64,000 nucleotides of DNA, taken from the NCBI GenBank assembly GCA_046570105.1, contig JBKHVI010000002.1, forward strand, positions 10,638 through 74,637. Reading direction: 5' to 3'. The position numbers were made by a program, and so were the translations under genes. This stretch comes from Bacteriovoracia bacterium. GTDB taxonomy: Bacteria; Bdellovibrionota; Bacteriovoracia; Bacteriovoracales; Bacteriovoracaceae. The notes beneath the pieces are model-generated. The model did no database searches and was not told where the DNA came from. It worked only from the letters and a program-made list of their open reading frames with translations. Every line of letters begins with the position of its first letter. Positions within the stretch are counted from its first letter, which is position 1. Positions 20,787-23,972 of the stretch are shown piece by piece.

Positions 20787-22022
20787 TTAAACGTCAAACT
20801 TCTTAACAATTAAAGCTGAATTGATACCCAACATCCCAAATGAGTTGTTGAGAATAGTTTTTACTTCTTTTTTGATTGGCGTGTGCAGCACTAATCCCGG
20901 AATTTCACAGGCCGGATCAAGCTCTTGCACATTGATACCTGGGTGAACTTGGCCATCCCAAAGCGATGGAATATTACCTGCGAGTTCAAGCGATCCAGCG
21001 GCACCCATCGAGTGGCCGATGTGCCCCTTGGTGAAATTCACCGATGTCTTATTTGATTCTGAAAACGCCACACGTACTGCTTCTGATTCAGAAATATCAC
21101 CGGCGCCTGTGCCTGTGGCATGCATATTTAAAATATCAATATCGGCCGGCTTCATTCCGGCACGACGAAGAGCTAAGTGCATGCACTGCACTTGGCGCTC
21201 AGGATTGGGATTCACAAAATCAGAGGCATCAGAATTGACCGCCCAACCAGCGATCTCAGCAACAATATGAGCTCCACGTTTTTGCGCATCTTCTAAGCGC
21301 TCAAGCACATAAATGCAGCCACCTTCTGAGATGGCAATACCCGTGCGAGACTTGCAAAGTGGACGTGATGATTTGGTGGGATCTTCATGATTAGCAAGCG
21401 CACCTTGAGCAGCAAAAGCGGCGTAGATACCAAAGGTCTGCGGTGATTCGGAAACACCTCCGCAAAGAGCGACATCAACTTCACCTAAAATGAGTTGTTG
21501 AGCACCGGCGATGATGCCGACGTTGCCACCAGCGCAAGCTGCACCCAAAGTATAATGCGGTCCTGTGATGCCCATATTGAGCGTTACTTCACCGGCAGGA
21601 TTATTGGCAACCGTGCGAGGATTGTGGTGTGGTGACCACAACTTCCAGTCGAGATTATTTTGGTGCATCTCGAAGATTTCATTTTCAGTTTCCACGTTGC
21701 CGTGTTCAGTGATGCCTAAGAAAACACCGACGCGAGATTTATCAACATTTTCCCAATCAAGTTTGGCGGAAGCTTTCGCTTCATTCGCACACCAAATAGA
21801 AATACTTCCGGCGCGCGTACCACGACGACGCATTTTTTTATTTTGATATTTGAATTCATCAAATTCACAGAGGCCCGCCACTTGTGAACCCATGTAACGA
21901 ATCTCTGTGTGTTTTAGTCCAGAGACTCCGTTCAACAAGGCTTCTCGAAAACTCTCCAAAGAATTACCATTCGGTGCTGTGAGCCCAATCCCTGTGATAA
22001 CGATTCTTTGCTGCTGTGCCAT
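20787..22022 (-). CDS. fabF: Beta-ketoacyl-ACP synthase (FabF-like, divergent)
   Basis: Cys-His-His triad: GAACAGG, MHATGT, TKGHIGH. C-terminal NNSFG. Confidence 0.85.
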   Translation of the reverse strand: MAQQQRIVITGIGLTAPNGNSLESFREALLNGVSGLKHTEIRYMGSQVAGLCEFDEFKYQNKKMRRRGTRAGSISIWCANEAKASAKLDWENVDKSRVGVFLGITEHGNVETENEIFEMHQNNLDWKLWSPHHNPRTVANNPAGEVTLNMGITGPHYTLGAACAGGNVGIIAGAQQLILGEVDVALCGGVSESPQTFGIYAAFAAQGALANHEDPTKSSRPLCKSRTGIAISEGGCIYVLERLEDAQKRGAHIVAEIAGWAVNSDASDFVNPNPERQVQCMHLALRRAGMKPADIDILNMHATGTGAGDISESEAVRVAFSESNKTSVNFTKGHIGHSMGAAGSLELAGNIPSLWDGQVHPGINVQELDPACEIPGLVLHTPIKKEVKTILNNSFGMLGINSALIVKKFDV

Positions 22023-22132
22023 ATTTTTCCCTTAGTAAGCGAGGAAAATTATTACCTTGCAGCGGAAAAGACGTCTAGTTAACAATTATGCTGAGCTTAG
22101 GGAAATGACATTGCACACAATCGATTTCTCCC

Positions 22133-22141
22133 TGGTATAGT
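22133..22141 (+). promoter_or_regulatory. Extended -10 sigma70-type promoter element for the histone gene
   Basis: TGgTATAGT about 40 nt upstream of ATG 22182, with a GGGAGA SD between. Confidence 0.5.
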
Positions 22142-22181
22142 GAGCGCTTATTTAAACGATTTAGTGAACGGGAGAGACCCC

Positions 22182-22580
22182 ATGGAAAACCTTATCGTCA
22201 TTTCGAAAGTTAAAAAGTTCATCAAAGAGAAGGCAGATTTCAATACTTCTGCTGGCTTCTTTGAACCATTGAACGAGGATGTGGTGAAAAGCTGTCGTGA
22301 CGCTGTGGCGCATGCACAAAAGCTTGGCCGCAAAACTGTTATGGGCAAGGACTTCAACCTCTACGTAGAGGGCAAAGAAAATGAAGAAGCTCTGGTAGTC
22401 ACGAGCAAAGTTAAAAAACTCATCAAGGACGAAGCAGGGCTTTCAACCTCTTCTCAGGCGATCGAGCAATTAACAGTACGAGTTCAGACTATTTGTATGA
22501 AAGCGATTGAAAACGCGAAAGCCGATCGCCGTAAAACAGTTATGGACCGTGATTTCACAGCTCCAACGACTTTGACCTAA
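22182..22580 (+). CDS. Bacterial histone-fold protein, tandem doublet of Bd0055-type domains
   Basis: Two collinear repeats offset by 67 aa, each LxVxSKVKKxIK...RKTVMxxDF, with the histone L2 RKT..D clamp. Confidence 0.85.
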   Translation: MENLIVISKVKKFIKEKADFNTSAGFFEPLNEDVVKSCRDAVAHAQKLGRKTVMGKDFNLYVEGKENEEALVVTSKVKKLIKDEAGLSTSSQAIEQLTVRVQTICMKAIENAKADRRKTVMDRDFTAPTTLT

Positions 22581-22583
22581 ATT

Positions 22584-23972
22584 TCATTCGGGGAGAGCTT
22601 CGGTTCTCCCCGCTCTGATCGCACTCATCAACAAAAAGCTCAAGAGACACACAATCACCGTCACAATGACGGGCGCTTCCCATTCAAAGACAAAATGACC
22701 TAAGAACCAGGTGATAAGGCTTGAGCCCATCGCCACCACCGCCGTGAGTTCATCACCTAATTTTGAGAAGAGCGCAAAACTCACCATCACTAAAATAGTG
22801 GGTCCGCCGAGACTTGAAGCGGTTTCCACTAACTCGGTGACTGAGTCCGAACTAAAAGCGATGAGATAAGCGGCAATTCCGCTGATAAACACTCCGGTGC
22901 GTGCCATGAAGACGCGTTTTTCATCATTAAGTTTCGGATAGCGAGGAAAAATTAAATTATGAGTCGCTAAGGCCGAAATCGCCAAAAGAGTTGAATCCAC
23001 CGTGGAGAGAATCGCTGACACCAGGGCCCCTACGAAAACAATATAAAGAAAAAAGCCTAAATGTTTTTTCGCCAACAAAGGCATGATGGTGTCTGAATCG
23101 GCCAGTTCAGGATGATAGACATGGCCCAAGAGACCAATCCCTACCGGCATGAGCCCCACTAAGAGATAAATAATTCCTGCCCGCCAAGATGAATGAAACG
23201 CCACATGACCTGAGCGCGAGGCCGACATGCGCGAAACTAATTCCTGACTCATCAGAGAGCCTAAGAGTGGAATGAGCCACATCTCCCATCTGGCCGCCCA
23301 ACTCATCTCTTTACTCATGGAAAAAAAATCCAGACTCTTGGGTTTAATTTGTGCGGCGGCCGGGGCGACGCCCCCCATATCCATCACCATCGCCCAAAAT
23401 AAAACGATCAATCCCACAATCAAGGCCGAGCCTTGAATCAGATCGGTATAGGCATCAGCGAGAAGACCACCTGAGATGGTATAGGTAATCACCACCAGTG
23501 CAGCTATGGTCACAGCAACAACCACTCCGTAATCAGTGGTGGCATGAATGATTTGTCCGAAGGCGCGGATTTGAGCGCCCGCCCACACCAGACTCGACGG
23601 AATCATAATGAGAGCGCCTAAGATTTCAGCACGAGCGCCAAAACGGGTGCGAAAGAGATCGGGAATGGTGGTGATTTTTTTATTCCACAGAATTCGCGCG
23701 AAAATAAAACCCATCAAAAAAATGCAAAGGGCATAACCAAAGGGATCAGCATGAGTGCCGCTGATTCCCTCACGATAAACTTTGCCCGAAGTACCAATAC
23801 AGGTTTCAGCTCCAAACCAAGTAGCAAAAATCGAGAAAGTCGCGAGGAATGGCCCCAGAGAGCGGCCTGCAAGGAAGTAGTCGGTATCGTTTTTAATACG
23901 CTTAGAAACGATATGCCCCAAAATAAGCATGCCTAATACGTAAATACTAATGCCGACCAGTTCCCAATTCAT
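22584..23972 (-). CDS. Sodium:solute symporter family transporter
   Basis: DYFLAGRSLG, FATWFGAE, YTISGGLLADAYTDLIQ, SAILSTVDS. About 13 TM helices. Confidence 0.92.
   Translation of the reverse strand: MNWELVGISIYVLGMLILGHIVSKRIKNDTDYFLAGRSLGPFLATFSIFATWFGAETCIGTSGKVYREGISGTHADPFGYALCIFLMGFIFARILWNKKITTIPDLFRTRFGARAEILGALIMIPSSLVWAGAQIRAFGQIIHATTDYGVVVAVTIAALVVITYTISGGLLADAYTDLIQGSALIVGLIVLFWAMVMDMGGVAPAAAQIKPKSLDFFSMSKEMSWAARWEMWLIPLLGSLMSQELVSRMSASRSGHVAFHSSWRAGIIYLLVGLMPVGIGLLGHVYHPELADSDTIMPLLAKKHLGFFLYIVFVGALVSAILSTVDSTLLAISALATHNLIFPRYPKLNDEKRVFMARTGVFISGIAAYLIAFSSDSVTELVETASSLGGPTILVMVSFALFSKLGDELTAVVAMGSSLITWFLGHFVFEWEAPVIVTVIVCLLSFLLMSAIRAGRTEALPE
22589..22612 (+). terminator. Strong UUCG hairpin right after the histone stop, embedded in the 3' end of the convergent gene
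   Basis: CGGGGAGAGC-TTCG-GTTCTCCCCG, a 10-bp stem with one GU pair. No U-tract. Confidence 0.5.

Follow-up and report, generated by a model that had tools for sequence, protein, structure and literature searches.

We analysed a window of 64,000 nucleotides from the genome of a Bacteriovoracia bacterium of the family Bacteriovoracaceae (3.0 Mb, 131 contigs, 87.8% complete). Its forward strand carries the gene of P0001, a protein made of two fused histone folds, which lies between a divergent beta-ketoacyl-ACP synthase gene and a convergent symporter gene. The features of the locus are:

20787..22022, reverse strand: divergent neighbour, beta-ketoacyl-ACP synthase of 411 aa (Pfam PF00109 and PF02801)
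22112..22141, forward strand: predicted sigma-70-like promoter (-35 TGCACA at 22112-22117, 18-nt spacer, extended -10 TGgTATAGT at 22133-22141)
22170..22176, forward strand: Shine-Dalgarno sequence GGGAGAG, 5 nt upstream of the ATG, as read from the sequence
22182..22580, forward strand: coding sequence of the histone doublet P0001, 132 aa, stop codon counted in
22185..22358, forward strand: histone fold 1, residues 2-59 (AlphaFold2: alpha1 7-18, L1 19-23, alpha2 24-47)
22359..22385, forward strand: linker LYVEGKENE, residues 60-68 (net charge -2; mean pLDDT of the 61-70 block, 79)
22386..22559, forward strand: histone fold 2, residues 69-126 (AlphaFold2: alpha1 74-85, alpha2 91-114, L2 RKTVMDRD 117-124)
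22560..22577, forward strand: C-terminal tail APTTLT, residues 127-132 (from the alignment; low pLDDT at the very end)
22584..23972, reverse strand: convergent neighbour, sodium:solute symporter family protein of 462 aa (Pfam PF00474)
22589..22612, forward strand: hairpin, putative terminator (10 bp, GC-rich, UUCG loop, no T-run)

The open reading frame runs from the ATG at 22182 to the TAA at 22578-22580 and encodes a protein with a computed mass of 14.7 kDa and pI of 9.1. An alternative GTG start at 22140 would add 14 residues; it falls within the predicted -10 box, and the Met at 22182 is the start in 36 of 39 aligned homologues. The first-pass annotation of this DNA had described an extended -10 box, a Shine-Dalgarno sequence and a strong downstream hairpin, and each was located at the gene. 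In a consensus scan the promoter matched 9 of 12 positions, with TATAGT at 22136-22141 and a TG at 22133-22134, and three promoter-like sites were found against 1.0 ± 0.8 in shuffled sequences. The extended -10 (TGnTAnnnT) was present at only three of 28 doublet loci (L001, L003 and L014); the doublet family does not conserve it, and the promoter is a prediction only. A GGAG-like purine-rich stretch was visible by eye just upstream of the assigned ATG at most related loci, in a comparison where the start codons of some loci are mis-assigned. The hairpin has a folding energy of -20.1 kcal/mol (z = -3.7; none of 200 shuffles as stable). As no T-run follows it, the terminator scan made no call, and the T-run rule found no terminator over 21900-22800. 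Hairpins of -18 kcal/mol or lower, unrelated in sequence, lie within 60 nt of the stop codon at 22 of the 28 loci. The histone and symporter stop codons are 3 nt apart (window positions 22578-22612), and the hairpin downstream of the histone gene sits inside the last ~10 codons of the symporter gene. The synthase gene adjoins the doublet at 26/28 loci, the exceptions being L013, at a contig end, and L020, and a convergent symporter gene is found at 13/28, partial in some.

The two halves of P0001 are repeats of each other. BLASTP aligned residues 1-65 with residues 66-132 without gaps at an offset of 67 (26/58 identical, 35/58 similar, E 1e-14), in agreement with an earlier hand count of 25/55 that had put forward two gap-free repeats at the same offset. 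Both motif pairs pointed out at that stage were located, SKVKKxIK as SKVKKFIK (8-15) and SKVKKLIK (75-82) and RKTVMxxDF as RKTVMGKDF (50-58) and RKTVMDRDF (117-125), and the short stretch that joins the repeats is indeed acidic overall. In all 28 genome-derived doublets the linker is 9-11 aa long, aromatic or hydrophobic at its start and acidic thereafter. Within the tail, P128 and T129 are invariant in the doublet family (39-row alignment).

We then compared each half with solved structures. A sequence search matched residues 69-126 to HBb (Bd0055) of Bdellovibrio bacteriovorus (PDB 8cmp_A/8fvx_A, E 1.7e-14), with 31 of 58 residues identical by manual count of the alignment, which bears out the close likeness of repeat 2 to Bd0055 noted in the first-pass annotation. 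Residues 2-58, searched alone, also found HBb as their best PDB match (8fvx_A, E 1.5e-9). Family profiles scored lower: P0001 reached 18.8 bits with Pfam PF00808 (cut-off 21.4) and 35.9 with NCBIfam archaea_histone (cut-off 50), and these sub-cut-off scores count against the explanation that we favour.

The AlphaFold2 model, built on a 39-sequence alignment (pLDDT 92.2, pTM 0.86), consists of two helix-loop-long helix-loop-turn units, with helices at residues 7-18, 24-47, 74-85 and 91-114; the L1 and L2 loops of both units contain short bridge segments. Each half has an alpha2 of 24 residues and, after L2, three residues in helical conformation; in fold 1, L2 carries RKTVMGKD (50-57) before a one-turn alpha3. 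Half of the model fits onto HBb at 0.6-0.7 Å, and Foldseek aligned fold 2 with 9f0e_A at a TM of 0.95 and an rmsd of 0.6 Å (53% identity). In the predicted fold, the two histone folds of one chain pair with each other. The first-pass annotation had proposed a fused doublet of two Bd0055-type folds, and the HBb matches of both halves, the BLASTP repeat and the model all agree with it. The covalent pseudo-heterodimer that it had envisaged is likewise predicted by the model and its superposition on HBb.

The accessible part of Schwab 2024 marks out alpha3 'bacterial dimer' histones by a short alpha2, a one-turn alpha3, the motif RKTxxxxD, lysines in alpha1 and the lack of the R and N of FtF histones. 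Both halves of P0001 have the sequence and fold features listed there. RKTxxxxD reads R50-K-T-V-M-G-K-D57 in half 1 and R117-K-T-V-M-D-R-D124 in half 2; the loop K and T are invariant in 28/28 doublets, and R, K and T in the 39-row alignment. The alpha1 lysines K9, K11, K15, K76, K78 and K82 are also invariant in 28/28 doublets. P0001 is an alpha3-type 'bacterial dimer' (HBb/Bd0055-like) histone in which two folds are fused.

P0001 resembles HBb (PDB 8cmp, 8fvx, 9ezz, 9f0e) in the truncated alpha3 of its fold, in the RKTVMxRD loop, in the S-K-x-K with which alpha1 opens and in the majority of its DNA-contact residues. Where HBb, at 64 aa, is a singlet and homodimerises, P0001 consists of two diverged copies in one chain. 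Natural doublets also occur among nucleosomal-type histones, in HMk of M. kandleri (1f1e) and in the H2B-H2A and H4-H3 fusions of Marseilleviridae, which have a full alpha3 and wrap DNA. P0001 is of the short-alpha3 type, unlike these proteins, and its type of fusion arose independently of theirs.

The doublet itself was already known, and P0001 is a further orthologue of a protein that is already in print. In its accessible sections, Hocher 2023 separates singlet and doublet histone size classes, and its Table S1 holds five 131-132-aa Bacteriovoracaceae proteins of exactly the P0001 type. The available text of Marinov et al. (2023 preprint; Genome Res 2025) reports a histone doublet in strain A3.12 that resembles the Bd0055 dimer, and that of a 2026 paper in BMC Microbiol describes a 132-aa histone of Peredibacter starrii HCB2-198 with "two BD0055 domains", identical in A3.12. 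Hu et al. 2024, in the part available, mention pseudodimeric bacterial histones in general. The earlier remark that no Bd0055-type doublet had been characterised thus fails as to the record, since the doublet appears in Hocher 2023, in Marinov et al. and in the 2026 paper, and holds for biochemistry: full-text literature, with bioRxiv supplements outside its scope, yielded no biochemical work on such a doublet. The doublet of Bacteriovorax sp. ICPB 3264 [H-I A3.12] / Peredibacter starrii A3.12 and HCB2-198 resembles P0001 in its 132 aa, two HBb-like folds and linker layout, and each of the two proteins is encoded by the sole histone gene of its genome. P0001 comes from an uncultured Bacteriovoracaceae genome and differs from the P. 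starrii protein at 13% of residues; nothing about it is different in kind. At E up to 1e-3, homologues of P0001 fall into 409 clusters, of which the best 120 are 80-100% identical; the named ones are Bacteriovoracaceae MAGs and Peredibacter sp. HCB2-198, whose protein (P0018) is 87% identical.

The repeat, the HBb homology of both halves, the predicted pseudodimer fold, conservation, distribution and single copy are observed; DNA binding, abundance, nucleoid role and the oligomeric state of the doublet would follow by analogy with HBb. We put the probability of the whole reading at about 0.8: a fused HBb-like doublet, with a handshake inside the chain, that binds DNA non-specifically as a nucleoid histone. 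As modelled, the two folds would pair by the usual histone handshake within one chain, and a single 14.7-kDa P0001 chain would replace the HBb homodimer. If it behaves like HBb, P0001 most likely engages the phosphate backbone of DNA with no sequence specificity; the contacts would come from the opening turn of both alpha1 helices (S-K-x-K) and from two L1-L2 sites (N/S-T-S with R-K-T). Its role would be that of the histone component of the nucleoid in a Bacteriovoracaceae predator, beside three HU/IHF-family proteins. Of the sequencing runs listed, 20 contain part of the stretch; they are DNA or of unknown type, and none is RNA.

Bacterial histones have been studied for only a short time, and how HBb itself binds DNA is disputed, between the end-on coating described in the available parts of Hocher 2023 and the bending described in those of Hu 2024. 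For the doublet, the chromatin mapping in the accessible text of Marinov et al. consists of ATAC-seq, KAS-seq and Hi-C only, and how doublet-type histones bind DNA is described there as not clear. Their ATAC-seq gave no nucleosome-like protection signature, and this, as far as that text goes, counts against the favoured reading. In a single-chain doublet, unlike a homodimer, one half or one DNA site can be mutated without changing the other, and P. starrii, a predator that can be cultivated, has the doublet as its only histone.

We further investigated whether the two halves differ where HBb contacts DNA. The first-pass annotation had stated that the halves have diverged, and inside each of the 28 doublets the N-half and C-half are indeed only 39-48% identical, while N-halves of different doublets have a mean pairwise identity of 0.68 and C-halves one of 0.71. 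Of the ten HBb residues named in the available text of Hu et al. 2024 as making most DNA contacts, S9, K10, K12, K16, S24, K52 and T53 are invariant in both halves of 28/28 doublets. Where HBb has T8, half 1 carries I/V and half 2 mostly A. The position of N22 is N in half 1 (24/28) and S in half 2 (23/28), and that of R57 is K in half 1 (20/28) and R in half 2 (27/28). Standard histone geometry places L1 of each fold next to L2 of its partner. By this geometry, one site of the doublet (site A) would join L1 of half 1 to L2/alpha3 of half 2, and the other (site B) the converse. Site A keeps the N and R of HBb in 23/28 doublets (N21 and R123 in P0001), and site B has S and K in 19/28, including all 17 crown-group loci L001-L017 (S88 and K56 in P0001). 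Four deeper-branching doublets have N and R at both sites. The presence of S88 and K56 at one site, in place of N22 and R57, the top contact residues of HBb, counts against the favoured reading.

Judged from sequence, this difference between sites is the most concrete handle on the idea that the pseudo-heterodimer is functionally asymmetric, with sites and side surfaces so specialised that it would bind DNA with polarity or assemble in another way and give a different chromatin architecture. We regard such asymmetry as possible but somewhat unlikely. The halves differ within each protein and yet each is conserved between species, and the N-halves form a clade on a long stem (below); these points speak in its favour. 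Against this, seven of the ten contact positions are identical in both halves, the changes from N to S and from R to K are conservative, the deeper doublets keep N and R at both sites, and a single event may account for S and K at site B in the 17 crown-group loci, which are closely related. The narrower proposal that fusion let the two L1-L2 sites specialise in the crown group, N21/R123 staying HBb-like and S88/K56 being remodelled, we consider doubtful. If it were true, the doublet's binding to DNA would have a fixed polarity, or the bend that it makes would be asymmetric, neither of which homodimeric HBb can achieve, and the protein would be a natural single-chain tool for the dispute between end-on coating and bending.

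We built a domain tree of 248 distinct folds over 58 columns, with midpoint rooting only. A single clade of 32 rows (FastTree 0.934, IQ-TREE SH-aLRT 89.5) unites the N-halves with fragments and relatives from metagenomes; it has a long stem and is nested in a group (0.826) whose other members are the C-halves and a few singlets; with 58 columns, support is moderate and below usual thresholds. The tree suggests that there was probably one duplication-fusion in the family, followed by early divergence of the N-half. Among the doublets dN is 0.03-0.16 and synonymous sites are saturated, dS being usable in only 2 of 153 pairs, and this combination of saturated dS with low dN points to strong constraint on both halves. 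The dN/dS of both halves would be far below 1, as under strong purifying selection.

An FtF-like assembly, in which two doublets close into a torus like the HLp/HTkC tetramer and wrap about 60 bp, is very unlikely. The class Bacteriovoracia has FtF histones according to the accessible part of Schwab 2024, and half 1 has weak sequence matches to FtF chains (HTkC 9f2c, E 6.6e-4; HLp 9qt0, E 1.4e-3), but these lie far behind its match to HBb, and both halves match HBb far better. The same part of Schwab 2024 places the FtF tetramerisation residues 6 and 2 before the R of RxT (R41 and N45 in D4GZE0). Half 1 has H44/L48 at these positions and half 2 has N111/D115, as in HBb-type dimers. With the R and N of the dimer-dimer interface absent, FtF membership of P0001 was rejected.

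It is more improbable still that P0001 is a pseudodimer like the DUF1931 proteins (Aquifex Aq_328, T. thermophilus 1wwi), with no DNA binding and another role in the cell. P0001 has no sequence-family match to them: Pfam gave no DUF1931 match at E up to 10, listing just PF00808 and PF18502. Hu et al. 2025, in the part available, describe DUF1931 pseudodimers without the DNA-binding signature residues, whereas P0001 keeps RKT, the RD pair and the alpha1 lysines in both halves and has its basic pI. DUF1931 membership was rejected, with no family match and with the DNA-binding residues kept.

That a sequencing or assembly error merged two adjacent singlet genes can be dismissed, as nothing was found in its support and it is refuted by the frame, open across the linker at 28/28 genome loci from 11 genera, by the conserved linker length and by 40 full-length matches in the family sample. 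The doublet is a genuine, well-conserved protein. In the phylum sample, 351 of 401 genomes have a histone-fold match; among the best 150 matches (329 weaker ones besides), a full-length doublet occurs in 28 genomes, all Bacteriovoracaceae, with none from other families of the phylum. The family sample has full-length doublets in 40/151 Bacteriovoracaceae genomes and 16/69 genera. Nothing but the doublet matched in 7/7 genomes of the window's genus or, with E limited to 0.01, in 31 of the 40 doublet genomes. In the samples searched and among the matches listed, the doublet is confined to one family.

A search of its own genome with the doublet (E up to 10) gave the P0001 gene as the sole match. 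A relative's ZZ histone as query matched only the two doublet halves, so no ZZ histone was found in this 87.8%-complete genome. P0001 is thus the only histone-fold gene found in it. Three HU/IHF-family (PF00216) genes are present in this genome (G000) on contigs C34, C107 and C33 (L051-L053); the doublet coexists with these classical nucleoid proteins.

We also looked at the other histones of the family. ZZ histones, as given in the accessible part of Schwab 2024, share the HBb-like fold with P0001 and differ by their zinc-finger N-domain and single fold. Of the 20 non-doublet matches fetched, 18 are ZZ histones: all six second matches checked in doublet genomes, with a Cys-rich N-domain and one fold, and 12 of 14 best matches in non-doublet genera. 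The remaining two (genus g8) lack the Cys motif, and a tail precedes their fold at the N-terminus. Plain singlets were rarely met in the family, ZZ being the other type. The survey adds to the published record a family-confined doublet, its probable single origin and ZZ as the family's other histone type, an incremental gain.

The ZZ proteins L031, L032 and L035-L050 (for example L048:294-761, P0271) have 150-170 aa and occur in most other genera of the family, as best or second histone match, each with a Cys-rich zinc-finger N-domain and one HBb-like fold. Pfam had no match to P0271 at E up to 0.001. In g8 (L033 and L034), a polar/charged tail of ~40 aa precedes the fold and the 'PRRILVSS' linker motif of ZZ histones is kept without Cys; their start codon is ambiguous, and these may be ZZ histones whose zinc finger has been lost. 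In B. bacteriovorus, the available text of Hocher 2023 has a longer second histone and that of Schwab 2024 a low-expressed ZZ histone in HD100. We infer that Bd3044 is this ZZ histone, which neither passage names as such.

Fused alpha3-type folds were also met outside the family doublet. In a library of 1.8 billion proteins, the halves of P0209 (0.999) and of P0246 (0.93) are sisters in the tree, and some of P0131, P0139, P0141, P0209 and P0246 have halves that are sisters or far more alike than those of P0001, which points to independent, more recent alpha3-type duplications. Metagenome representatives of 216-274 aa (P0134, P0143, P0146-P0149, P0156, P0165 and P0221) carry a ZZ zinc finger followed by two histone folds, and P0143 is labelled as originating from a Myxococcota MAG. 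Taken with the sister halves, these proteins indicate that alpha3-type doublets arose more than once.

Bacterial histone tails are mostly positively charged according to the accessible part of Schwab 2024. The doublets L006, L010 and P0115 (149 aa, 44 member sequences) have an extra acidic N-terminal tail of ~16-21 residues, rich in N, T, E and S; as the usual start Met is replaced by Thr in them, this tail looks real.
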